From NCBI RefSeq assembly GCF_022846255.1, contig NZ_AP025682.1: 64,000 nt of DNA, one strand, 5' to 3'. This stretch comes from Escherichia coli (lineage in GTDB: Bacteria > Pseudomonadota > Gammaproteobacteria > Enterobacterales > Enterobacteriaceae). This document shows positions 46,454 through 64,000 of this stretch, piece after piece. Within the stretch, counting starts at the first letter, position 1, and every line of letters starts with the position of its first letter. The translations under genes and the position numbers were made by a program. The notes beneath the pieces were generated by a model. The model did no database searches. It was not told where the DNA came from and saw nothing but the letters and a program-made list of their open reading frames with translations.

Positions 46454-49303
46454 TTGAAATACCTTGCTTCTTTTCGTACAACCCTGAAAGCCTCGCGCTA
46501 CATGTTCAGAGCATTGGCGTTAGTGCTCTGGCTGTTGATTGCTTTTTCATCCGTTTTTTACATCGTTAATGCGTTACATCAGCGAGAATCGGAAATTCGT
46601 CAGGAATTTAATCTGAGTTCCGATCAGGCTCAGCGCTTTATTCAACGCACCTCTGATGTGATGAAAGAGCTGAAGTACATAGCTGAAAATCGCTTATCGG
46701 CAGAAAACGGTGTGCTTTCCCCGCGTGGACGAGAAACGCAGACGGATGTGCCTGCGTTTGAACCGCTGTTTGCTGACTCTGATTGTTCCGCAATGAGTAA
46801 CACCTGGCGAGGTTCTCTGGAGTCATTGGCGTGGTTTATGCGCTACTGGCGCGATAATTTTTCTGCGGCTTACGATCTAAACCGGGTATTTTTAATCGGC
46901 AGCGATAACCTCTGCATGGCTAATTTCGGTCTGCGTGATATGCCAGTGGAACGCGATACCGCGTTAAAAGCTTTGCATGAACGCATTAATAAATATCGAA
47001 ATGCACCACAAGATGATAGTGGCAGTAACCTCTACTGGATCAGCGAAGGTCCGCGCCCTGGCGTCGGGTATTTTTACGCCTTGACGCCAGTTTATCTGGC
47101 GAACCGGTTGCAGGCGCTTTTGGGTGTCGAGCAAACCATCCGGATGGAGAACTTTTTCTTACCTGGTACGTTGCCGATGGGGGTTACCATTCTTGATGAA
47201 AATGGTCATACCCTGATTTCGCTTACCGGACCAGAAAGCAAAATTAAGGGCGATCCTCGCTGGATGCAGGAACGCTCCTGGTTTGGCTATACGGAAGGGT
47301 TCCGGGAGCTGGTGCTGAAGAAAAATCTGCCACCCTCATCGCTAAGCATCGTGTATTCGGTGCCGGTTGATAAGGTGCTGGAACGCATTCGCATGTTGAT
47401 CCTTAACGCAATTTTGCTGAATGTGCTTGCCGGAGCTGCATTGTTTACTCTCGCGCGGATGTACGAGCGGCGTATTTTCATTCCGGCGGAAAGCGACGCC
47501 TTGCGACTGGAAGAACATGAGCAGTTTAATCGCAAGATTGTCGCCTCCGCGCCAGTGGGTATCTGCATTTTGCGTACCGCTGATGGCGTCAATATTTTAA
47601 GTAACGAACTGGCGCATACCTATCTCAATATGCTTACGCATGAGGATCGCCAACGGCTGACACAAATTATCTGTGGGCAGCAGGTCAATTTTGTTGATGT
47701 CCTGACCAGCAACAATACCAATCTGCAAATCAGCTTCGTCCATTCGCGCTATCGTAATGAAAACGTGGCCATTTGTGTGCTTGTGGATGTTTCTTCGCGC
47801 GTGAAGATGGAAGAGTCGTTGCAGGAGATGGCACAAGCAGCGGAACAGGCGAGTCAGTCAAAATCGATGTTCCTTGCCACCGTCAGTCATGAGCTGCGAA
47901 CGCCGCTGTATGGCATTATCGGTAACCTGGATCTGTTGCAAACCAAAGAGTTACCGAAAGGCGTCGATCGTCTGGTGACGGCAATGAACAACTCTTCCAG
48001 CCTGTTGTTGAAAATTATCAGCGATATTCTCGATTTCTCGAAGATTGAATCGGAACAGTTGAAGATCGAACCGCGTGAGTTTTCACCGCGTGAAGTGATG
48101 AACCACATCACCGCCAACTATTTACCGCTGGTGGTACGCAAGCAGTTAGGCTTGTACTGCTTTATTGAACCGGATGTGCCAGTGGCCTTAAATGGCGACC
48201 CGATGCGTTTACAGCAGGTCATCTCCAACCTGTTGAGTAACGCCATAAAATTCACCGATACCGGCTGTATAGTTTTGCATGTTCGCGCTGATGGCGATTA
48301 TCTCTCTATCCGTGTTCGCGATACCGGCGTGGGGATTCCGGCGAAAGAAGTCGTGCGCTTGTTTGATCCCTTCTTCCAGGTCGGAACGGGCGTACAGCGA
48401 AACTTCCAGGGGACCGGTCTGGGTCTGGCGATTTGTGAAAAACTGATCAGCATGATGGACGGCGATATCTCGGTAGATTCAGAACCGGGAATGGGCAGCC
48501 AGTTTACCGTGCGTATTCCGTTGTACGGCGCTCAGTACCCGCAGAAAAAAGGCGTGGAAGGGTTGAGTGGTAAACGCTGCTGGCTGGCGGTCCGCAATGC
48601 GTCGCTCTGTCAGTTCCTGGAAACCAGTTTGCAGCGCAGCGGCATCGTCGTTACAACATACGAAGGGCAGGAACCGACTCCCGAAGATGTGTTAATCACT
48701 GACGAGGTAGTGAGCAAAAAATGGCAGGGTAGAGCGGTAGTGACCTTCTGTCGTCGCCATATTGGTATTCCGCTGGAGAAAGCGCCAGGGGAGTGGGTAC
48801 ACAGTGTGGCTGCCCCGCATGAGCTACCGGCATTGTTGGCGCGTATTTATTTGATCGAGATGGAGAGCGATGATCCTGCTAACGCTCTGCCGTCGACGGA
48901 CAAAGCGGTCAGCGATAACGACGATATGATGATTCTGGTCGTGGATGATCATCCGATTAACCGGCGTCTTCTGGCAGATCAGTTGGGATCGTTGGGCTAT
49001 CAATGTAAAACCGCGAATGATGGCGTCGATGCGCTTAATGTACTTAGCAAGAATCATATTGATATCGTGCTTAGCGACGTCAACATGCCAAATATGGATG
49101 GTTACCGCTTGACGCAACGCATTCGTCAGTTGGGACTGACGTTGCCGGTTATCGGAGTAACTGCTAATGCGTTGGCTGAAGAGAAGCAGCGGTGTCTGGA
49201 GTCCGGTATGGACAGCTGCCTGTCGAAGCCGGTAACGCTGGATGTGATAAAACAGACGCTAACGGTATATGCCGAGAGGGTCAGGAAATCGCGGGATTCG
49301 TAG
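46454..49303 (+). CDS. rcsC: Hybrid sensor kinase RcsC, 949 aa (TTG start) or 933 aa from ATG 46502
   Basis: HisKA/HATPase plus C-terminal receiver; the ORF-track start is TTG. Confidence 0.9.
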   Translation: MKYLASFRTTLKASRYMFRALALVLWLLIAFSSVFYIVNALHQRESEIRQEFNLSSDQAQRFIQRTSDVMKELKYIAENRLSAENGVLSPRGRETQTDVPAFEPLFADSDCSAMSNTWRGSLESLAWFMRYWRDNFSAAYDLNRVFLIGSDNLCMANFGLRDMPVERDTALKALHERINKYRNAPQDDSGSNLYWISEGPRPGVGYFYALTPVYLANRLQALLGVEQTIRMENFFLPGTLPMGVTILDENGHTLISLTGPESKIKGDPRWMQERSWFGYTEGFRELVLKKNLPPSSLSIVYSVPVDKVLERIRMLILNAILLNVLAGAALFTLARMYERRIFIPAESDALRLEEHEQFNRKIVASAPVGICILRTADGVNILSNELAHTYLNMLTHEDRQRLTQIICGQQVNFVDVLTSNNTNLQISFVHSRYRNENVAICVLVDVSSRVKMEESLQEMAQAAEQASQSKSMFLATVSHELRTPLYGIIGNLDLLQTKELPKGVDRLVTAMNNSSSLLLKIISDILDFSKIESEQLKIEPREFSPREVMNHITANYLPLVVRKQLGLYCFIEPDVPVALNGDPMRLQQVISNLLSNAIKFTDTGCIVLHVRADGDYLSIRVRDTGVGIPAKEVVRLFDPFFQVGTGVQRNFQGTGLGLAICEKLISMMDGDISVDSEPGMGSQFTVRIPLYGAQYPQKKGVEGLSGKRCWLAVRNASLCQFLETSLQRSGIVVTTYEGQEPTPEDVLITDEVVSKKWQGRAVVTFCRRHIGIPLEKAPGEWVHSVAAPHELPALLARIYLIEMESDDPANALPSTDKAVSDNDDMMILVVDDHPINRRLLADQLGSLGYQCKTANDGVDALNVLSKNHIDIVLSDVNMPNMDGYRLTQRIRQLGLTLPVIGVTANALAEEKQRCLESGMDSCLSKPVTLDVIKQTLTVYAERVRKSRDS

Positions 49304-49497
49304 GACGGATAAGGCGTTTACGCCGCATCTGGCATTCAGTGCAAATGCCAGATGCGACGCTGACGTGTCTTATCTGGCCTACTTTAATGTAATCTGTTGA
49401 AATAATGGGAATCGTAGGACGGATAAGGCGTTTACGCCGCATCCGGCAATCGGTGCAAATGCCAGATAAGACACTAACGCGTCTTATCTGGCCTACA
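49304..49497. repeat. REP/BIME cluster between convergent rcsC and rcsB
   Basis: Two copies of cgtaggacggataaggcgtttacgccgcatc (about 49297 and 49412) plus inverted partners ending cttatctggcctac. Confidence 0.8.
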
Positions 49498-50169: not shown

Positions 50170-52842
50170 CTACAGCAAGCTCTTGACATAACTGTCAATG
50201 TCGCTGATGTATTTTTCTATTCCTGGAACATCCTTCTCACGAATCAGATGTTCCAGCGTTTCACATAACTGCTTGCCGGGTACCAGATTTAGCATGGCAA
50301 ATACGCCTTTAAGACGATGAGCCGTTTGGGCTAACGCAGCAAAGTCACTGGTTGCTGCTTCAGTATACAGCCTCTTAACATCATCCGGTACTGTGTCTAC
50401 AAAGAGCGCATAATAGCCGCTGGCATGGAGTTGCGCATTTTCATCTCCGCCCAGAGGCGATTCTGTCACCTCTTCCTGCGCCAGTTGCACTTCAATTAAT
50501 TGTAAGACCGCTTCCTGCATAGCGTTGCTCATATTGAAATTGACGCACAATTGACCAGGCCCAATTTCCCGTACGCCAGACTCATCATCGCTTAAAAGCA
50601 AGCCAGAGGCAGTAAGATTAGACGGATTATCCGTTAAAAAGATATCATAATCTTGACTAATTAATCTTTCATCGGGTGTGATACAGGTTGCACCCCAATT
50701 TTCTAACTGGCGAGTGACAATATTCCGAATTTCTGCCGAAGTAACATCCACCATTACGCAGACATCATCCAGTAATCGCTCTTCTTCCTCTTCAACTTCC
50801 GGGTCAGCTGCGAGCATTTTGATATGCACAGAGTAGCGTGTACCGAGCCCATCCCGCGTTTTGATGTTTAAATGACCGCCCAGTTTACGCGCCAGTTGAT
50901 CGCTCAGCCAGAATGCCAGCGGGTCCGCCTTGCCATAGCGATCGTTTTGGGTCTGGTTGATAAACGGGAAGTGCAAATTATCCATTTCATGAATACTTAC
51001 GCCTTCTCCCGTGTCCAGAATGCGGAACGTCAGGCGGTCTTCGGAGGACTCATCCTGATCAACCTCAAGGGTGATTTTTCCCAATTGCGTTGAGGTCACG
51101 GCATATTGCATCAGTAGTAGCAAAATACGTCGTAAGGCATCGCGATCGCCGCGGCGCATATCGTGTGCTTTCAGATGATTGTTAATCAGCAGTTGCAGAC
51201 CTTTACGCTTGATGGCAGGCAACACTGAAGGCACAACTTCATCAATTAAATCCTGCACGGAGAACAGCTCCGTCTCACTTTTCCAGCTATCGTCCGCAAG
51301 CATGTTCGCTAACTGTATTTCATCGACCAGCCGCACCAGCACATCTGCCTGATTCGCCAGTTGTTTGCCTTCCGGGGCGTTGAGTTTAGCCGCGCTCTCC
51401 GCCAGGGACTGTGCGGGTTCTTTCAGCGCATCGCCAATGTTTTTCATAAAGGTCATCCGCCCCTGCTGGTTTTTCTCATACAGACGCTGCGCCTGCTTGA
51501 GTTTCTTGTTTACCAGCACTTCGCGATCCTGATCGCGAATAATGAAAATTTGTGTGCGCGGCGCAACCTGGCTGCGGAACATGCGGATCTCATACAGCTC
51601 GTTATTGATCGTCGCCTGAATAATCCCCTGATGCTGTTCCGCCATGGTGGTGATGTTTTGCAGATTCAAATGCGGCAGCAAATGATCGGCAATTTTGTTA
51701 CTTATGACTGTGCGGTTCGATTCCTGATCGTGAACCAGCAGGCCGAGCGGCAGCAGTGAGACTATCTCTTCATTAATTGCCCGTAAAATGCGCAATTCGT
51801 TATTGACCGCCGTGCTGGGGACGCTTTCTGTACTGCGGCTGGAGAAATGGCGGAATGTGGTATAGCCAAATAACGCCAGCGCCAGCAAACCGATGTTCAG
51901 CAGCAGTGGCAGCAGAATGTTTTGCAACGTATCCAGCAGTAAGGTGCCGTAAGGAACCTGCCAGACCAGGCGCATATCGGTAGAGTTGAGTGCCGAGGAG
52001 ATTTCAATCTTCGTACTGTTAAAGTGGATACTGACGCTATCCGTCCCTTCTTTCTCATTTTCATTGTTTCCCGTTGCCGTCGCGTCTGGCTCAAGGCGGA
52101 AACTGTCCAGCGGCATACCCGGTGGGATCAAATCATTAATCGGCAGATCAAAAGCCACGACCGTTGCCAGATGTCCCGGCTGGTTGAACGTGGTACGCAA
52201 GGTAAAGTAATGACCGTTCTGCCAGGCCAGGCGGCGCATGTTAGAAAAACTTTCGCGTTCATCGAGGGCGTTGGCCTGTTGCAACATCTCTGCACGACGT
52301 GAATCAACAATGTCGCTGACGGTCGATTCTTTAAATCCGGAGGTGAGATCTTTGAGGGGCAGGGTTGAGATCAGCACCAGACTGTTATCCTGACCATTCA
52401 GGTAATACATCGACCACGGTACATTTTCTGCGCCCCACAATGTGTCCAGATAGGTGGACATCCGTTGAGTCATCTCAAGCGTTGAGTTGTCGTGAGAGCC
52501 AAAGATTAACGCTTCCGTTTTGCGGCGTGGTTTCTCCAGATAGTAGACATCCTGTTTCAGGCGCGTCTCTTGTAAACCTTCGCCGGAGGAGGGGGAGGTT
52601 GTCGCGGCAATGTTGTCGTAGATCTGCCAGGTCACGTAACGCCAGGTATCGACGCGCTTTTGGATAGCGTGGGTAATGTCGACAATCTGGTAACTTTTAT
52701 CTTTCAGCCAGGCGTTAACGGCGCTTTGTACCATTACACCCATCGTCACCAGTAACACAATGATCAACAGTAAAAAGAAGCGGGTAATGCTCCCCGGTAG
52801 GAGTGAAAAGCGGGTCGTGGCCGTTGTCTCTTTCTGACGCAT
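50170..52842 (-). CDS. rcsD: Phosphotransfer intermediate RcsD (YojN), 890 aa
   Basis: Protein recognised; C-terminal HPt domain. Confidence 0.9.
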   Translation of the reverse strand: MRQKETTATTRFSLLPGSITRFFLLLIIVLLVTMGVMVQSAVNAWLKDKSYQIVDITHAIQKRVDTWRYVTWQIYDNIAATTSPSSGEGLQETRLKQDVYYLEKPRRKTEALIFGSHDNSTLEMTQRMSTYLDTLWGAENVPWSMYYLNGQDNSLVLISTLPLKDLTSGFKESTVSDIVDSRRAEMLQQANALDERESFSNMRRLAWQNGHYFTLRTTFNQPGHLATVVAFDLPINDLIPPGMPLDSFRLEPDATATGNNENEKEGTDSVSIHFNSTKIEISSALNSTDMRLVWQVPYGTLLLDTLQNILLPLLLNIGLLALALFGYTTFRHFSSRSTESVPSTAVNNELRILRAINEEIVSLLPLGLLVHDQESNRTVISNKIADHLLPHLNLQNITTMAEQHQGIIQATINNELYEIRMFRSQVAPRTQIFIIRDQDREVLVNKKLKQAQRLYEKNQQGRMTFMKNIGDALKEPAQSLAESAAKLNAPEGKQLANQADVLVRLVDEIQLANMLADDSWKSETELFSVQDLIDEVVPSVLPAIKRKGLQLLINNHLKAHDMRRGDRDALRRILLLLMQYAVTSTQLGKITLEVDQDESSEDRLTFRILDTGEGVSIHEMDNLHFPFINQTQNDRYGKADPLAFWLSDQLARKLGGHLNIKTRDGLGTRYSVHIKMLAADPEVEEEEERLLDDVCVMVDVTSAEIRNIVTRQLENWGATCITPDERLISQDYDIFLTDNPSNLTASGLLLSDDESGVREIGPGQLCVNFNMSNAMQEAVLQLIEVQLAQEEVTESPLGGDENAQLHASGYYALFVDTVPDDVKRLYTEAATSDFAALAQTAHRLKGVFAMLNLVPGKQLCETLEHLIREKDVPGIEKYISDIDSYVKSLL

Positions 52843-53153
52843 TCGTGTTTATGACCTGTTAAAACTTCGCGAAGTGATAGGGCAGTATAAAGGGTACAGT
52901 GTGAAATTCCAGACTCTTACCTGATTGATGATTCTCTATTCTCCAGTGATATTTATCATCCTGCATTGGGGGAAATAGATGTACAAGCGCCATTTTGCTG
53001 TACAAATAACCTACAAAAAGCCTAACGAAATTAATTGCAAATAAACGAAGATTGCTGGAAATTATGCTGATGTTAATTATTTGTGAAATAGTTAACAAGC
53101 GTTATAGTTTTTCTGTGGTAGCACAGAATAATGAAAAGTGTGTAAAGAAGGGT

Positions 53154-53246
53154 AAAAAAAACCGGATGCGAGGCATCCGGTTGAAATAGGGGTAAACAGA
53201 CATTCAGAAATGAATGACGGTAATAAATAAAGTTAATGATGATAGC
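53154..53246 (-). ncRNA. micF: MicF antisense sRNA (93 nt), repressor of ompF translation
   Basis: Minus strand reads GCTATCATCATTAACTTTATTTATTACCGTCATTCATTTCTGAATGTCTGTTTACCCCTATTTCAACCGGATGCCTCGCATCCGGTTTTTTTT, ending in a hairpin plus U8 terminator; divergent from ompC. Confidence 0.9.
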
Positions 53247-53401
53247 GGGAGATATTCTAGTTGCGAGTGAAGGTTTTGTTTTGACATTCAGTGCTGTCAA
53301 ATACTTAAGAATAAGTTATTGATTTTAACCTTGAATTATTATTGCTTGATGTTAGGTGCTTATTTCGCCATTCCGCAATAATCTTAAAAAGTTCCCTTAT
53401 A

Positions 53402-53461
53402 TTTACATTTTGAAACATCTATAGCGATAAATGAAACATCTTAAAAGTTTTAGTATCATAT
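53402..53461 (+). promoter_or_regulatory. OmpR-binding sites C1-C2-C3 of the ompC promoter
   Basis: tttacattttgaaacatcta / tagcgataaatgaaacatct / taaaagttttagtatcatat match the known three tandem 20-bp OmpR boxes. Confidence 0.75.
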
Positions 53462-53580
53462 TCGTGTTGGATTATTCTGCATTTTTGGGGAGAATGGACT
53501 TGCCGACTGATTAATGAGGGTTAATCAGTATGCAGTGGCATAAAAAAGCAAATAAAGGCATATAACAGAGGGTTAATAAC

Positions 53581-54696
53581 ATGAAAGTTAAAGTACTGTC
53601 CCTCCTGGTCCCAGCTCTGCTGGTAGCAGGCGCAGCAAACGCTGCTGAAATTTACAACAAAGACGGCAACAAATTAGATCTGTACGGTAAAGTTGACGGC
53701 CTGCACTATTTCTCCGATAACGACTCTAAAGATGGCGACAAGACCTACATGCGTCTTGGCTTCAAAGGTGAAACTCAGGTTACTGATCAACTGACCGGTT
53801 ATGGTCAGTGGGAATATCAGATTCAAGGTAACGAACCTGAAAGTGACAATAGTTCCTGGACCCGTGTGGCATTCGCTGGTCTGAAATTCCAGGACGTTGG
53901 TTCTTTTGACTATGGTCGTAACTACGGCGTTGTTTATGACGTAACATCCTGGACCGACGTGCTGCCAGAATTCGGTGGTGACACCTACAGCTCTGACAAC
54001 TTCATGCAGCAGCGTGGTAACGGCTTCGCGACCTACCGTAACACCGACTTCTTCGGTCTGGTTGATGGCCTGAACTTTGCTGTTCAGTACCAGGGTAAAA
54101 ACGGTAGCCCGTCTGGCGAAGGTATGACTGGTGTGACCAACAATGGTCGTGATGTTCTGGAACAGAACGGTGACGGCGTTGGTGGTTCTATCACTTATGA
54201 CATCGGTGAAGGCTTCAGCTTCGGTGGTGCAATCTCCAGCTCCAAACGTACCGCAGAGCAGAACAATTATGGCATCGGTAACGGCGATCGTGCAGAAACC
54301 TACACTGGTGGTCTGAAATACGACGCTAACAATGTATACCTGGCTGCTCAGTACACCCAGACTTACAACGCAACTCTGGCTGGTGATTTAGGTTGGGCGA
54401 ACAAAGCTCAGAACTTTGAAGTGGTTGCACAGTACCAGTTCGACTTCGGTCTGCGTCCTTCTGTAGCTTACCTGCAGTCCAAAGGTAAAAACCTGAATGC
54501 CAACATCGCTGGTCGTACTTACGACGACGAAGATCTGCTGAAATATGTTGATGTTGGTGCGACCTACTACTTCAACAAAAACATGTCCACCTACGTTGAC
54601 TACAAAATCAACCTGCTGGACGACAACCAGTTCACCCGCGCTGCTGGCATCAACACTGATAACATCGTAGCTCTGGGTCTGGTTTACCAGTTCTAA
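53581..54696 (+). CDS. ompC: Outer membrane porin OmpC, 371 aa (non-K-12 allele)
   Basis: Signal peptide [21 protein letters not shown]; ends LVYQF; differs from my recollection of K-12 OmpC (367 aa) in loop segments. Confidence 0.9.
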
Positions 54697-54716
54697 TCTC
54701 GATTGATATCGAACAA

Positions 54717-54737
54717 AGGGCCTGCGGGCCCTTTTTT
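54717..54737 (+). terminator. Rho-independent terminator of ompC
   Basis: agggcc-tgcg-ggccct hairpin followed by T6. Confidence 0.75.
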
Positions 54738-54807
54738 CATTGTTTTCAGCGTACAAACACAGTTTTTTGGTGTACTCTTGCGACCGTTCGCATGAGGATA
54801 ATCACGT

Positions 54808-55863
54808 ATGGAAATAAGCTTTACCCGCGTGGCACTGCTGGCTGCCGCGCTCTTCTTTGTTGGTTGCGATCAAAAACCACAACCCGCCAAAACCCACGCT
54901 ACTGAAGTTACCGTTCTTGAAGGCAAAACCATGGGTACCTTCTGGCGTGCCAGCATTCCGGGCATTGACGCCAAACGCAGTGCCGAACTTAAAGAAAAGA
55001 TTCAGACCCAGCTGGACGCCGACGATCAGCTGCTTTCGACCTATAAAAAAGATTCCGCGCTGATGCGCTTTAACGACTCGCAAAGTTTGTCGCCGTGGCC
55101 AGTAAGTGAAGCGATGGCCGATATCGTCACCACCTCGCTACGCATTGGCGCGAAGACCGATGGCGCGATGGATATAACCGTCGGGCCGCTGGTGAATCTG
55201 TGGGGCTTTGGCCCGGAACAACAGCCGGTTCAAATTCCGAGCCAGGAACAGATCGATGCGATGAAAGCCAAAACCGGCTTACAGCACCTGACGGTCATTA
55301 ATCAGTCGCATCAGCAATATCTGCAAAAAAACCTGCCGGATTTATATGTCGATCTCTCCACTGTCGGCGAAGGCTATGCGGCGGATCATCTGGCACGCTT
55401 GATGGAGCAGGAAGGGATTTCCCGCTATCTGGTGTCGGTGGGCGGCGCGCTGAACAGCCGTGGCATGAACGGTGAAGGCCAGCCGTGGCGGGTAGCGATT
55501 CAAAAACCAACCGATAAAGAAAACGCGGTTCAGGCTGTGGTGGATATCAACGGTCATGGCATTAGCACCTCTGGCAGCTACCGTAACTATTACGAACTGG
55601 ACGGCAAACGTCTTTCTCATGTTATCGATCCGCAAACCGGGCGTCCTATCGAACACAATCTGGTATCCGTGACGGTGATTGCCCCGACGGCGCTGGAAGC
55701 CGATGCCTGGGATACTGGCTTAATGGTACTGGGGCCGGAGAAAGCCAAAGAGGTTGTTCGCCGGGAAGGACTGGCGGTCTACATGATCACCAAAGAGGGC
55801 GATAATTTTAAAGCCTGGATGTCGCCGCAGTTTAAAAGCTTCCTTATCAGCGAAAAAAATTAA
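54808..55863 (+). CDS. apbE: FAD:protein FMN transferase ApbE (lipoprotein), 351 aa
   Basis: Lipobox LFFVGC near the N-terminus. Confidence 0.85.
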   Translation: MEISFTRVALLAAALFFVGCDQKPQPAKTHATEVTVLEGKTMGTFWRASIPGIDAKRSAELKEKIQTQLDADDQLLSTYKKDSALMRFNDSQSLSPWPVSEAMADIVTTSLRIGAKTDGAMDITVGPLVNLWGFGPEQQPVQIPSQEQIDAMKAKTGLQHLTVINQSHQQYLQKNLPDLYVDLSTVGEGYAADHLARLMEQEGISRYLVSVGGALNSRGMNGEGQPWRVAIQKPTDKENAVQAVVDINGHGISTSGSYRNYYELDGKRLSHVIDPQTGRPIEHNLVSVTVIAPTALEADAWDTGLMVLGPEKAKEVVRREGLAVYMITKEGDNFKAWMSPQFKSFLISEKN

Positions 55864-55869
55864 AGCGCA
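55857..55869 (+). promoter_or_regulatory. Ada box of the ada-alkB promoter
   Basis: AAATTAAAGCGCA matches AAANNAAAGCGCA; overlaps the apbE stop codon. Confidence 0.7.
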
Positions 55870-55936
55870 AGATTGTTGGTTTTTGTGCGATGGTGACCGG
55901 GCAGACTAAAGGCTATCCTTAACCAGGGAGCTGATT

Positions 55937-57001
55937 ATGAAATACGCCACATGCTTAACTGACGATCAACGCTGGCAATCTGTCTTAGCCCGCGACTCGA
56001 ATGCCGACGGCGAATTCGTTTTCGCCGTGCGCACCACGGGTATCTTTTGCCGTCCGTCTTGCCGAGCCAGACATGCCTTGCGGGAAAATGTCTCCTTCTA
56101 CGCAAATGCCAGCGAGGCGCTTGCCGCTGGCTTTCGTCCCTGCAAACGTTGTCAGCCAGACAAAGCCAATCCCCTGCAACATCGCCTTGATAAAATTACC
56201 CACGCCTGCCGACTTCTGGAACAGGAAACGCCTGTAACGCTGGAAGCCTTAGCCGACCAGGTGGCGATGAGTCCATTTCATTTGCATCGGTTGTTTAAAG
56301 CGACTACCGGAATGACGCCTAAAGCCTGGCAACAGGCCTGGCGCGCTCGCCGTTTGCGCGAATTGCTGGCGAAAGGGGAGAGCGTGACTACATCTATTAT
56401 TAACGCCGGATTCCCCGACAGCAGCAGTTACTACCGCAAAGCCGACGAAACGCTGGGCATGACGGCTAAACAATTCCGTCACGGTGGCGAAAATCTGGCG
56501 GTGCGTTACGCGCTGGCTGATTGTGAGCTGGGCCGTTGCCTGGTGGCAGAAAGTGAGCGGGGGATTTGCGCGATATTACTGGGCGATGATGACGCGACAC
56601 TAATCAGCGAGTTACAGCAGATGTTTCCCGCTGCCGACAGCGCGCCTGCCGATCTGACGTTTCAGCAACATGTGCGTGAAGTGATCGCCAGCCTCAATCA
56701 ACGCGATACGCCGCTGACGTTACCGCTGGACATTCGCGGCACTGCTTTTCAGCAACAAGTCTGGCAGGCACTGCGCACGATACCTTGCGGTGAAACCGTC
56801 AGTTATCAGCAACTGGCTAACGCCATCGGCAAACCGAAAGCGGTACGGGCCGTTGCCAGCGCCTGTGCCGCCAACAAGCTGGCTATCATAATACCCTGTC
56901 ATCGGGTGGTCCGTGGTGATGGCACACTTTCCGGTTACCGCTGGGGCGTGTCGCGTAAAGCGCAACTGCTGCGCCGCGAAGCTGAGAATGAGGAGAGGTA
57001 A
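55937..57001 (+). CDS. ada: Bifunctional regulator / O6-methylguanine-DNA methyltransferase Ada, 354 aa
   Basis: N-terminal Zn Cys cluster; C-terminal PCHRV active site. Confidence 0.95.
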   Translation: MKYATCLTDDQRWQSVLARDSNADGEFVFAVRTTGIFCRPSCRARHALRENVSFYANASEALAAGFRPCKRCQPDKANPLQHRLDKITHACRLLEQETPVTLEALADQVAMSPFHLHRLFKATTGMTPKAWQQAWRARRLRELLAKGESVTTSIINAGFPDSSSYYRKADETLGMTAKQFRHGGENLAVRYALADCELGRCLVAESERGICAILLGDDDATLISELQQMFPAADSAPADLTFQQHVREVIASLNQRDTPLTLPLDIRGTAFQQQVWQALRTIPCGETVSYQQLANAIGKPKAVRAVASACAANKLAIIIPCHRVVRGDGTLSGYRWGVSRKAQLLRREAENEER

Positions 57002-57651
57002 TGTTGGATCTGTTTGCCGATGATGAACCGTGGCAAGAGCCACTGGCGGCTGGTGCGGTAATTTTACGGCGTTTTGCTTTTAACGCTGCGGAGCAACTGA
57101 TCCGCGATATTAATGATGTTGCCAGCCAGTCGCCGTTTCGCCAGATGGTCACTCCAGGCGGATATACCATGTCGGTGGCGATGACCAACTGTGGGCATCT
57201 GGGCTGGACGACCCATCGGCAAGGTTATCTCTATTCGCCCATTGATCCGCAAACAAATAAACCGTGGCCCGCCATGCCGCAGAGTTTTCATCATTTATGT
57301 CAACGTGCGGCTACGGCGGCGGGCTATCCAGATTTCCAGCCAGATGCCTGTTTGATCAACCGCTACGCTCCTGGCGCGAAACTGTCGCTGCATCAGGATA
57401 AAGACGAACCGGATCTGCGCGCGCCGATTGTTTCTGTTTCTCTGGGCTTACCCGCGATTTTTCAATTTGGCGGCCTGAAACGAAATGATCCGCTAAAACG
57501 TTTGTTGTTGGAACATGGCGATGTGGTGGTATGGGGCGGTGAATCGCGGCTGTTTTATCATGGCATTCAACCGTTGAAAGCGGGGTTTCATCCACTCACC
57601 GCCGACTGCCGCTACAACCTGACATTCCGTCAGGCAGGTAAAAAAGAATAA
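57001..57651 (+). CDS. alkB: Alkylated-DNA repair dioxygenase AlkB, 216 aa
   Basis: Start overlaps ada stop by 1 nt (TAATG). Confidence 0.95.
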   Translation: MLDLFADDEPWQEPLAAGAVILRRFAFNAAEQLIRDINDVASQSPFRQMVTPGGYTMSVAMTNCGHLGWTTHRQGYLYSPIDPQTNKPWPAMPQSFHHLCQRAATAAGYPDFQPDACLINRYAPGAKLSLHQDKDEPDLRAPIVSVSLGLPAIFQFGGLKRNDPLKRLLLEHGDVVVWGGESRLFYHGIQPLKAGFHPLTADCRYNLTFRQAGKKE

Positions 57652-57726
57652 AAATAAGAATTATTATTGCTGTGCGCACGAAGATGTTTAAACTGCGGGC
57701 TGTAATTCATTGTCCGGGTTTTCTGC

Positions 57727-59370
57727 ATGGAACTTCTTGTACTTGTCTGGCGGCAGTATCGCTGGCCATTTATCAGTGTGATGGCGCTAAGCCTCGCCAG
57801 TGCGGCATTAGGCATTGGCTTAATTGCTTTTATCAATCAGCGCCTTATCGAAACGGCGGATACCAGTCTGCTGGTGTTGCCGGAGTTTCTGGGATTATTG
57901 TTGCTGTTGATGGCAGTCACTCTCGGATCGCAACTGGCGCTCACCACTTTGGGGCATCACTTCGTTTACCAACTGCGTAGTGAATTTATCAAGCGGATTC
58001 TGGATACCCACGTCGAGCGCATTGAACAACTTGGTAGCGCTTCGTTGCTGGCGGGGTTAACCAGCGATGTGCGCAATATCACCATTGCTTTTGTGCGTCT
58101 GCCGGAACTGGTGCAGGGGATCATTCTCACTATCGGTTCCGCGGCGTATTTGTGGATGCTGTCGGGCAAAATGTTGCTGGTAACGGCTATCTGGATGGCA
58201 GTCACCATCTGGGGCGGTTTTGTGCTGGTGGCGCGGGTGTACAAACATATGGCGACCCTGCGTGAAACCGAAGATAAGCTGTACACGGATTTTCAAACCG
58301 TACTCGAAGGGCGCAAAGAGCTGACTCTGAACCGGGAACGCGCCGAGTATGTGTTTAACAACCTCTACATTCCTGATGCGCAAGAGTATCGCCATCATAT
58401 TATCCGCGCAGACACCTTCCATCTTAGTGCCGTGAACTGGTCAAACATCATGATGCTGGGCGCTATCGGCCTGGTGTTCTGGATGGCGAACAGTCTCGGT
58501 TGGGCTGATACCAACGTTGCCGCGACCTATTCGTTGACGCTGTTATTCCTGCGTACGCCGCTGCTTTCGGCAGTTGGCGCATTGCCGACGCTGCTGACGG
58601 CGCAGGTGGCGTTTAACAAGCTGAACAAATTCGCGCTCGCACCTTTCAAAGCAGAGTTTCCACGCCCGCAGGCGTTTCCCAACTGGCAAACGCTGGAGCT
58701 GCGTAACGTGACGTTTGCTTATCAGGATAACGCGTTTTCCGTTGGGCCGATTAACCTCACCATCAAACGTGGCGAACTGCTGTTTCTGATTGGTGGCAAC
58801 GGTAGCGGAAAATCGACGCTGGCGATGTTGCTGACGGGCTTGTATCAGCCACAAAGCGGCGAAATCTTGCTGGATGGCAAACCTGTCAGCGGCGAACAAC
58901 CGGAAGATTATCGCAAACTGTTTTCGGCAGTGTTTACCGATGTCTGGCTGTTTGATCAACTGCTGGGGCCGGAGGGTCAACCCGCTAACCCGCAACTGAT
59001 TGAGAAGTGGCTGGCGCAACTGAAAATGGCTCATAAGCTTGAGTTAAGCAACGGACGTATTGTTAACCTGAAGTTATCAAAAGGGCAGAAAAAACGCGTC
59101 GCGCTGTTGCTGGCGCTGGCAGAAGAACGCGATATTATCCTGCTGGATGAATGGGCGGCGGATCAGGACCCACACTTCCGTCGTGAGTTTTATCAGGTGC
59201 TGCTACCGCTGATGCAGGAGATGGGTAAAACGATTTTCGCCATCAGTCATGATGATCATTACTTTATCCACGCTGACCGCCTGCTGGAAATGCGCAACGG
59301 GCAACTTAGCGAGCTGACAGGCGAAGAGCGCGATGCTGCTTCGCGTGATGCCGTTGCCCGGACGGCATAA
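57727..59370 (+). CDS. yojI: ABC transporter (fused permease/ATPase) YojI, microcin J25 efflux, 547 aa
   Basis: Walker [10 protein letters not shown]; N-terminal transmembrane domain. Confidence 0.85.
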
Positions 59371-59382
59371 TATTTCGACGCT

Positions 59383-59409
59383 GACCTGGCGGACTGCTGC
59401 CGCCAGGTC
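59383..59409 (+). terminator. Stem-loop downstream of yojI (candidate terminator)
   Basis: Perfect 10-bp stem gacctggcgg/ccgccaggtc with 7-nt loop; followed by AT-rich sequence but no clean U-run. Confidence 0.45.
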
Positions 59410-59575
59410 AATATTCTAAAAATCCCTTCATTTCTAATAACCCTATAATTAATCAACGAAATTATAATGTTTCTAAAATTAGAATATAATTTATAAACAT
59501 TATTTAAATGTTGTTACTTAAGTGTTACCGTTGATGCCGCGCAAATCTCACCTGCAATAAAGCGACTAAAAGTAA

Positions 59576-61234
<1,659 letters not shown>

Positions 61235-61236
61235 TG

Positions 61237-61365
61237 ATGTGCCACATCCGGCATGGTATGCCGGATGTGGCGTATGCAGATAAGACGCGTCAGCGTCGCA
61301 TCAGGCAACCGGCTCGGGCGTTAGATGTCGGATGCGGCGTAACCGCCTTATCCGACCTGGCGGTT
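61237..61365. repeat. REP/BIME cluster between mqo and eco
   Basis: gatgtgccacatccggcatggtatgccggatgtggcg ... gatgtcggatgcggcgtaaccgccttatccgacctggcgg. Confidence 0.8.
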
Positions 61366-61383
61366 GCAGCACTTCACAGCAGT

Positions 61384-61872
61384 TTAGCGAACTACCGCGT
61401 TGTCAATTTTCTCTTCCGCCTTCCAGACGCGGTACTTCACATCTACATTGTCTGGCGTATACACCACGATCGGCAGCTTGCTGTTATAACGCAGCATTCC
61501 GGCATCGCCCAGATACGCGGTGACAAATTTCTTCTCTTTCTTGCCATCCGGGCAGGCCATCATCGTCGAAACCGGGGAACTGACTTTATCAAAGACATAA
61601 TAATCATAGCCCCAGCCTTCCAGCGTTTTGCTTTCCAGCTTCCCGCCGAGACGATGCAAATTGCAATCGACTTCCAGCGTCTGGCCGATTAACAGTTCTA
61701 CTTTCAGGGTAGATTCATCTTCTTGCGGGGTTAACTGAATCACCTGGCGCTTCATGCCTTTTTCAGCTTGTGGATAAGGTGCGATTTTTTCCAGTGGCTG
61801 GACGCTTTCTGCCGCCCAGGCGGAAGTGGTGGCGAAAGCGGCAAACAATACTGCAGGTAGAATGGTCTTCAT
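61384..61872 (-). CDS. eco: Ecotin, periplasmic serine protease inhibitor, 162 aa
   Basis: Starts [20 protein letters not shown]; ORF-track start 61893 is an extension. Confidence 0.9.
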
Positions 61873-62131
61873 TTTTTTGCTTTCCTTCTTCATTTATAGG
61901 TTTTCACCGATGATGACGCTGAAGGTTAACATATTCATCAGATTTATTAATTTGCTTTATGAATAACTTAAAGAACATTCAGATAATTTTACCTGCTCTT
62001 TTAGTGTTAAATTCTGATGAGAAAACAAACCAGCAGAAATATCTCTGGCGAATTAATCGATATATAAATATGTTTATAACCATTTGAAATGTGAGCAAAA
62101 GCCCGTTTTTGCCACGCTTCCCGCCACTCTT

Positions 62132-62166
62132 TTGATCCTGCTACAGGTTTTACCCCGATCGGGGTA
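62132..62166 (+). promoter_or_regulatory. napF promoter: FNR-like site (62132-62145) and NarP/NarL 7-2-7 palindrome (62151-62166)
   Basis: ttgatcctgctaca, then perfect palindrome TACCCCGATCGGGGTA 20 bp downstream; spacing fits the known -64.5/-44.5 arrangement; taatat -10 candidate at 62187-62192. Confidence 0.65.
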
Positions 62167-62279
62167 TGCATCTTTGACACATCCTTTAATATCTTAGCGG
62201 CTATAAAAATGGCTTATTAATTATGCGGTTTATTTGGTCGCTCTCAATTTTCAGAGCGCGTTAATGATGGAAGGTCAAT

Positions 62280-62774
62280 GTGAAGATTGATGCATCCCGT
62301 CGGGGCATACTCACTGGTCGCTGGCGCAAAGCCAGTAACGGTATCCGTCCGCCCTGGTCCGGTGATGAATCTCATTTTCTGACCCATTGCACCCGCTGCG
62401 ACGCCTGTATTAATGCTTGTGAAAACAACATTCTGCAACGCGGCGCGGGTGGCTATCCGAGCGTTAATTTCAAAAATAACGAGTGCAGCTTCTGTTACGC
62501 CTGCGCGCAGGCTTGCCCCGAATCGCTATTTTCTCCGCGCCACACCAGGGCCTGGGATTTGCAGTTCACCATTGGGGACGCGTGCCTGGCGTATCAGTCA
62601 GTTGAATGCCGCCGCTGTCAGGATAGCTGTGAGCCAATGGCAATTATCTTTCGCCCGACGCTCTCCGGGATCTACCAGCCGCAACTTAATAGCCAACTTT
62701 GCAACGGATGTGGAGCATGTGCAGCCAGCTGTCCGGTATCAGCCATAACTGCGGAGTATCTCCATGCACACTAA
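62280..62774 (+). CDS. napF: Ferredoxin-type protein NapF, 164 aa
   Basis: GTG start with SD ggaagg 62269-62274; multiple CxxCxxC clusters. Confidence 0.85.
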   Translation: MKIDASRRGILTGRWRKASNGIRPPWSGDESHFLTHCTRCDACINACENNILQRGAGGYPSVNFKNNECSFCYACAQACPESLFSPRHTRAWDLQFTIGDACLAYQSVECRRCQDSCEPMAIIFRPTLSGIYQPQLNSQLCNGCGACAASCPVSAITAEYLHAH

Positions 62775-63027
62775 CTGGCAAGTTTGCAGCCTGGTCGTGC
62801 AGGCCAAAAGCGAACGAATTTCAGACATCAGCACCCAACTGAACGCCTTTACCGGCTGTGAAGTTGCTGTCAGCGACGCGCCGAGCGGTCAGTTGATTGT
62901 GGTGGTGGAAGCAGAAGACAGCGAAACGCTGATCCAAACCATTGAGTCAGTACGCAACGTAGAGGGCGTGCTGGCGGTGTCGCTGGTTTATCACCAGCAG
63001 GAAGAGCAAGGTGAGGAAACACCATGA
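62764..63027 (+). CDS. napD: NapA chaperone NapD, 87 aa
   Basis: Overlaps napF by 11 bp and napA by 4 bp. Confidence 0.85.
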
Positions 63028-64000
63028 AACTCAGTCGTCGTAGCTTTATGAAAGCTAACGCCGTTGCGGCCGCTGCGGCGGCTGCCGGTCTCAGCGTGCC
63101 GGGCGTTGCCCGCGCCGTTGTTGGTCAGCAGGAAGCCATTAAATGGGATAAAGCGCCGTGCCGTTTCTGCGGTACGGGTTGCGGCGTTCTGGTCGGAACG
63201 CAGCAGGGGCGTGTGGTGGCCTGTCAGGGCGACCCGGACGCACCGGTTAACCGTGGCCTGAACTGCATTAAGGGCTATTTCCTGCCCAAAATCATGTACG
63301 GTAAAGACCGTTTGACGCAGCCGCTGCTGCGTATGAAAAACGGTAAATATGACAAAGAAGGCGAATTTACCCCAATCACCTGGGATCAGGCCTTCGATGT
63401 GATGGAAGAGAAATTCAAAACCGCCCTGAAAGAAAAAGGGCCGGAATCGATCGGTATGTTCGGTTCTGGTCAGTGGACTATCTGGGAAGGTTATGCCGCG
63501 TCCAAGTTGTTCAAAGCGGGCTTCCGTTCGAACAACATCGACCCGAACGCGCGTCACTGTATGGCGTCGGCAGTAGTTGGCTTTATGCGTACCTTTGGTA
63601 TGGATGAGCCGATGGGCTGCTATGACGACATCGAGCAGGCTGACGCGTTTGTGCTGTGGGGCTCCAACATGGCGGAGATGCACCCGATCCTCTGGTCGCG
63701 CATCACTAACCGTCGTCTTTCTAACCAGAACGTCACCGTGGCGGTGCTTTCTACCTACCAGCATCGTAGCTTCGAGCTGGCGGATAACGGCATCATCTTT
63801 ACGCCGCAATCTGACCTGGTGATCCTGAACTATATCGCCAACTATATCATTCAAAACAATGCGATAAATCAGGACTTCTTCAGCAAACACGTTAACCTGC
63901 GCAAAGGGGCGACGGACATCGGCTACGGTTTACGTCCGACCCATCCGCTGGAAAAAGCAGCGAAGAATCCGGGTTCTGACGCCTCCGAACCGATGAGCTT
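63024..64000 (+). CDS. napA: Periplasmic nitrate reductase catalytic subunit NapA, N-terminal part (runs off window)
   Basis: Twin-arginine signal [31 protein letters not shown]; Cys cluster CRFCGTGC; not in ORF track because it has no stop inside the window. Confidence 0.9.

Follow-up and report, generated by a model that had tools for sequence, protein, structure and literature searches.

The DNA between the divergently oriented eco and napF genes of this Escherichia coli strain raises a simple question: is it the control region of the napFDAGHBC operon, which is the operon for periplasmic nitrate reductase, and, if it is, which of its elements can be assigned to which regulator and to which promoter? 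An earlier note, made from the letters alone, had called it a napF promoter with FNR and NarP sites. We refer to the whole stretch of 64,000 nucleotides that was analysed as the window, and all coordinates are those of the window. The region is almost certainly the napFDAGHBC control region. It is followed immediately by napF, napD and napA, and eco diverges from it on the other side, the open reading frames being named from the annotation of matching E. coli genomes (SK1144 and K-12):

upstream of napF, minus strand: eco, a divergent 169-aa open reading frame
62280–62774, plus strand: napF, with which the operon opens; coding sequence of 164 aa beginning with GTG
62764–63027, plus strand: napD, an 87-aa open reading frame following napF
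63024 to the end of the window, plus strand: napA, a long open reading frame that runs off the window

NapF is identical to K-12 NapF; NapD and residues 1–325 of NapA each differ from K-12 by one residue and contain no stops. At the level of the DNA, identity to E. coli K-12 MG1655 is 100% from 62073 to the napF start and the first napF codons. The Fnr 14-mer, the 7-2-7 site, their 20-bp spacing, the overlapping -10 hexamers, the 5' UTR and NapF are all shared with the K-12 napF (aeg-46.5) region, whereas nine base differences are found upstream of -130 over the aligned eco–napF gap (61894–62072). Curated sites for napF (b2208), comprising a Fnr 14-mer and two NarL/NarP heptamers, are given in the supplement of PMC2718512, and the same sequences are present here with their centres 20 bp apart. 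The identification made in the earlier note is thus upheld by the gene context, by the identity to K-12 and by the curated b2208 sequences. We consider the feature real on grounds other than the strength of its motifs: it lies upstream of napFDA, it is identical to the characterised K-12 promoter, and it shows a cross-species footprint in which the spacing is fixed. The sequences, their spacing, the K-12 identity and the conservation are direct observations on this DNA. What has been found is an already known, textbook promoter, correctly re-identified; it is real but ordinary. The strain carries the standard cis wiring for low-nitrate anaerobic respiration, which is of little importance beyond annotation.

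The elements of the promoter itself are the following, with distances given relative to a P1 start at 62203:

62132–62145, plus strand: Fnr site TTGAT-CCTG-CTACA (TTGATCCTGCTACA), centre 62138.5, which is -64.5 if +1 is 62203
62151–62166, no strand assigned: NarP/NarL 7-2-7 site TACCCCG-AT-CGGGGTA (TACCCCGATCGGGGTA), a perfect inverted repeat, centre 62158.5, at -44.5
62187–62192, plus strand: TAATAT, putative -10 of a minor upstream promoter P2 with its start at about 62200, overlapping TATCTT with a 3-nt offset
62190–62195, plus strand: TATCTT, putative -10 of P1 (Fnr/NarP-activated), at -13 to -8 relative to +1 at 62203
62203, plus strand: putative P1 start (+1), placed from a 7-2-7 site at -40 to -49 (PMC4549865), leaving a 77-nt 5' UTR before the napF GTG at 62280

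The FNR-like TTGAT-N4-nTACA site and the perfect 7-2-7 palindrome of the earlier note are both found, at 62132–62145 and 62151–62166, and the distance between their centres (62138.5 and 62158.5) is exactly the 20 bp that had been claimed. Compared with TTGAT-N4-ATCAA, the Fnr site matches at all five positions of the left half and at two of the five positions (ATCAA) of the right half. The curated b2208 Fnr entry, CTCTTTTGATCCTGCTACAGGTTT, contains the 14-mer TTGATCCTGCTACA (PMC2718512 supplement), and there is a napF peak in K-12 FNR ChIP-seq, transcription needing co-activation by NarP (PMC3688515). A position weight matrix (PWM) built from 48 curated E. coli FNR sites (PMC2718512 supplement), with napF excluded, nevertheless gives the site only 2.1 bits, which places it 992nd among the 63,987 positions of the window and 13th in the eco–napF gap. 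The curated sites themselves have a median of 10.3 bits and a minimum of -1.4, such that the napF site falls within their range as a weak half-site. Nor are matches to the FNR consensus TTGATNNNNATCAA with up to three mismatches above chance in the window when taken as a stand-alone test (348 against 255 expected). The napF Fnr site is not callable by the matrix alone, being a weak half-site. There is a lesson of method in this: the site is among the best-characterised Fnr sites of E. coli, yet a matrix scan does not see it, and only homology and the NarP site at a constant distance of 20 bp allow it to be recognised.

The strongest matches to the FNR matrix in the window sit away from napF. 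One, TTGATATCGAACAA at 54703–54716 (14.5 bits), lies shortly past ompC, ahead of the next gene; another, GTGATATTTATCAT at 52946–52959 (12.2 bits), lies in the gap between a long minus-strand open reading frame ending at 52842 and micF. The MicF RNA is itself called by Rfam at 53154–53247 on the minus strand, upstream of ompC.

The palindrome TACCCCGATCGGGGTA is perfect over 16 bp and does not extend further; each of its heptamers, TACCCCG, matches the inverted TACYYMT element at six of seven positions, and the gap between them is exactly 2 bp. The curated b2208 NarL heptamers are TACCCCG in forward and reverse orientation, flagged as a 7-2-7' pair (PMC2718512 supplement). It has been reported that NarP binds only 7-2-7' sites and that napF is one of four classic promoters with such a site (PMC2718512); its position at napF is given as -40 to -49 (PMC4549865). 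With a 7-2-7 matrix constructed from 70 curated NarL heptamers (PMC2718512 supplement), napF again excluded, the palindrome, with 12.0 bits, is the top match of the window; simulated sequence reaches as much 1.3 times per 64 kb. Two further counts in the window are likewise at chance level: matches to the 7-2-7 consensus TACYYMTNNAKRRGTA with up to two mismatches (three against 2.8 expected), and perfect 16-bp palindromes (two against 1.3 expected). The joint expectation for a Fnr site and a 7-2-7 site at a fixed offset, in one orientation, is approximately 1.3 x 0.0155, or about 0.02, per 64 kb. The coincidence is thus rare, but this is no independent test, since napF itself is the sole source of the offset. 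The matrix scan that the earlier note had proposed as a check put the 7-2-7 site first in the window (12.0 bits) and the FNR site far down the list, with neither above chance. Besides the napF palindrome, the window holds one more that is perfect over 16 bp, ACACCAATATTGGTGT at 994–1009, which is inside or at the start of a 205-aa open reading frame (825–1442).

Among 5421 complete E. coli genomes, 4947 have an identical 86-bp core (62125–62210). For comparison across species, a NapF scan with one genome per species yielded seven close relatives, namely a divergent Escherichia, E. albertii, four Citrobacter and Leclercia. In the alignment of upstream regions, TTGAT is invariant in eight species, as are 11 of the 14 heptamer positions and both spacer bases; there is no gap in any aligned sequence from the Fnr site to the -10, and in the flanks identity falls to about three or four of the seven relatives. 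Upstream of napF in E. albertii, Citrobacter and Leclercia, TTGAT is followed by the 7-2-7 site and then by TATCTT at unchanged distances, without indels. What differs in these relatives is the Fnr site, which reads TTGATCCGGCAACA (TTGATCTACCTACT in Leclercia), together with the innermost heptamer positions, which vary, and TAATAT, which is not conserved; Leclercia is also without the ModE and Crp blocks described below. In two Citrobacter strains the 7-2-7 site reads TACCCCA-AT-TGGGGTA, a symmetric change that preserves the dyad, which is what a binding site for a dimer predicts. The E. coli Fnr allele, CCTGCTACA, differs at 62139 and 62142 from the CCGGCAACA of E. albertii, the divergent Escherichia and Citrobacter, and no exact carrier of this ancestral-type allele was found among complete E. 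coli genomes. Over the 12 kb from 52000 to 64000 of the window, the best identity among 5426 complete E. coli genomes is only 98.8%, so that the strain belongs to a somewhat divergent lineage, or else variation is unusually high in some portion of these 12 kb, possibly in ompC.

The motif scans stand at chance level, and it could be argued from this that the motifs are chance matches and that the local conservation reflects coding constraint from yojO, which in many E. coli genomes is annotated over these very bases:

62171–62007, minus strand: yojO open reading frame, annotated in many E. coli genomes, overlapping the NarP and Fnr sites

There is scarcely any probability in such an account. 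In E. albertii and the divergent Escherichia the frame of yojO is cut short, and in Citrobacter and Leclercia it has no Met, but the sites and their spacing are still kept; coding constraint from a frame that is broken or startless in the relatives was rejected on this ground. Furthermore, conservation runs past the yojO start (62171) and through the -10, and in K-12 the same sequence is curated as a site and is bound in ChIP. It is probable that yojO is not a real gene. A different objection is that the palindrome, with its GGGG/CCCC core and its perfect inverted symmetry over 16 bp, is a G+C-rich RNA or DNA hairpin acting as a terminator or attenuator, with no protein site involved. This too has next to no chance of being correct, and the palindrome was rejected as a terminator: the terminator scan is negative at the palindrome on both strands, no run of T follows it, and, being located before the putative start of transcription, it is expected to be absent from nap mRNA. 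The symmetric change at the innermost heptamer position in two Citrobacter, along with the fixed spacing to TTGAT, fits a dimeric protein site instead.

If the 7-2-7 site spans -40 to -49, with its centre at -44.5, then +1 is 62203; from this it follows that the Fnr site is at -64.5, TAATAT at -16 to -11 and TATCTT at -13 to -8. The earlier note had taken a TAATAT hexamer about 30 bp beyond the palindrome as the -10. The hexamer is indeed there, at 62187–62192, its centre 31 bp past the palindrome centre, and as the -10 of the activated promoter it probably fails on grounds of geometry and conservation. The proposal that TAATAT is the -10 of the Fnr/NarP-activated promoter and that TATCTT is irrelevant can appeal to the distance of 31 bp from the NarP centre and to a match to TATAAT at four of six positions, equal to that of TATCTT; it is nonetheless improbable. 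At -16 to -11, TAATAT is too far upstream for a start at 62203, whereas TATCTT occupies -13 to -8. TATCTT also shows no variation among the eight species, nor does it change in the outlier E. coli MFDS1006657, whereas TAATAT becomes AAATAT in Citrobacter and Leclercia (first T to A) and TTATAT in MFDS1006657. Stewart, Bledsoe and Williams, in 2003, reportedly described napF as having two overlapping promoters, whose starts or -10 regions are separated by about 3 nt. Of these, P1, the downstream promoter, is said there to carry the Fnr/NarP activation, which places this regulation on the downstream -10, and the upstream promoter P2 to be weak and inhibited by both NarP and NarL. That paper and one by Darwin in 1998 are those that define -64.5/-44.5 and P1/P2. 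An assignment of TATCTT to P1 and TAATAT to P2 fits because of the 3-nt offset, each hexamer being at -13 to -8 of its own start (62203 and 62200). From geometry and conservation, and partly from the published work, we infer both this allotment of the two hexamers and the position of +1; TAATAT would then probably be the -10 of the minor promoter and not that of the Fnr/NarP-activated one.

The best explanation includes a sigma-70 promoter that is activator-dependent and has no usable -35 element. A scan of the plus strand for sigma-70 -35/-10 pairs with 16–18 bp spacing found none; the -10 candidates match at four of six positions and the sequence at the -35 position, TGCATC, at two of six. 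The lack of a pair is what an activator-dependent promoter would show. A perfect TTGACA at 62174–62179 was considered as a -35 and rejected, as only 7–10 bp separate it from the -10 candidates and Citrobacter does not keep it. Downstream, the napF 5' UTR shows no significant fold (z-score -0.72, consensus energy -2.4 kcal/mol). A scan of 62000–62300 for the IscR type-2 motif gave a best match on the minus strand at 62208–62232 with two of the nine specified positions mismatched, which is about the level of chance.

How the promoter would work can be set out by analogy with the identical K-12 sequence, for which the binding of Fnr and of phospho-NarP or NarL and the anaerobic nitrate-dependent activation are documented (PMC9262595, PMC3688515, PMC2718512); the protein binding and the regulatory logic assumed for this strain are taken from that literature. 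Under anaerobic conditions a Fnr dimer would occupy the half-consensus site at -64.5 (62132–62145). When nitrate or nitrite is sensed, a dimer of phospho-NarP would bind the 7-2-7 repeat at -44.5 (62151–62166), beside the would-be -35 position, and the two proteins would jointly activate P1 through TATCTT at 62190–62195, with transcription starting at about 62203. Phospho-NarL is expected to compete for the same 7-2-7 site and to be a poor activator, so that nap expression would peak at low nitrate and drop at high nitrate. Upstream, a candidate ModE site (-133.5) and a probable Crp site may add molybdate and carbon-source inputs, and TAATAT, 3 nt upstream of TATCTT, may serve the weak overlapping P2. 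Co-activation by Fnr and NarP, with competition by NarL, is the published model for the identical sequence, and nothing in the window speaks against its applying here. The earlier note had further argued that anaerobic, nitrate-responsive nap expression is intact. As far as the sequence in cis goes this appears to hold; fnr, narP, narQ, narL and napGHBC are outside the window.

The arrangement can be compared with that of other promoters under the same regulators. At nirB and nrfA, Fnr binds in class II position, at -41.5, and further upstream comes the 7-2-7 site, at about -69.5 and -74.5, respectively. The order at napF is the opposite one: Fnr is the upstream protein, at -64.5, and NarP adjoins the polymerase. 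At yeaR-yoaG and ogt, the 7-2-7 site is near -43 and the promoters are Fnr-independent, whereas napF requires Fnr 20 bp further upstream. With nirB and nrfA, napF has in common the two regulators and the 7-2-7' type of NarP site (PMC2718512); with yeaR-yoaG and ogt it has in common a near-identical position of that site, which spans -38 to -47 at yeaR and -40 to -49 at napF (PMC4549865).

Further upstream lie two elements through which other signals may be received:

62056–62083, no strand assigned: ModE-like operator ATCGATATATA-N6-TTTATAACCAT, core TATAT-N7-TTTAT at 62061–62077, centre 62069.5, at -133.5
62085–62110, no strand assigned: conserved block with TGTGA at 62090–62094, probable Crp site, upstream of the Fnr site

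The ModE-like operator is conserved in Escherichia and Citrobacter. Its core, TATAT-N7-TTTAT, may be compared with the consensus TATAT-N7-TAYAT; Citrobacter has TATAT-N7-TATAT. McNicholas and Gunsalus reportedly described, in 2002, both the operator consensus and a ModE site at -133.5, and the centre of the candidate operator agrees with this position. Activation of nap by ModE has been stated (PMC8139620). Two of the nine base differences from K-12 fall in this ModE region, 62060 being changed from C to A and 62072 from A to G, and the only strain-specific feature is found here. The second of these changes is common to strain SK1144. The first is private, since none of the 5096 complete E. 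coli genomes that match this stretch has it, and is located immediately 5' of the left TATAT; the segment 62040–62100 has an exact match in no complete E. coli genome. The change at 62060 is probably tolerated because the relatives have C or T there. That the lineage differs from K-12 in an upstream input, outside the Fnr/NarP core, with the C to A change altering molybdate-dependent control of nap, is conceivable from the sequence and very unlikely. In the neighbouring block, 62085–62110, a mean of 5.9 of the seven relatives match the window per column across Escherichia and Citrobacter, Leclercia being the usual exception. A Crp site upstream of the Fnr site of napF was reportedly described by Stewart et al. 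in 2009, and the TGTGA block is probably this site.

Several minor observations concern the same region and its surroundings. Only two GATC (Dam) sites are found in 62000–62300. One, at 62134, is in the Fnr half-site (TTGATC). The other, at 62157, coincides exactly with the centre of the NarP dyad (CGATCG) and is missing in some Citrobacter, which have CAATTG. Speculatively, these two sites might make occupancy by Fnr and NarP sensitive to Dam methylation. A promoter-like sequence on the minus strand, TTGAGA-16-CATAAT (10 of 12 matches, 62220–62247), lies in the napF 5' UTR and points across the regulatory sites to yojO and eco. The conserved yojO peptide ‘HTPIGV’ is the NarP site read on the opposite strand. 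On the far side of eco, the mqo–eco gap (61235–61383) contains one REP/BIME unit of about 113 bp, as against six tandem copies (714 bp) in K-12. Two REP-derived naRNA4 elements are called by Rfam at 49303–49379 and 49417–49493, after a 949-aa open reading frame that ends at 49303.
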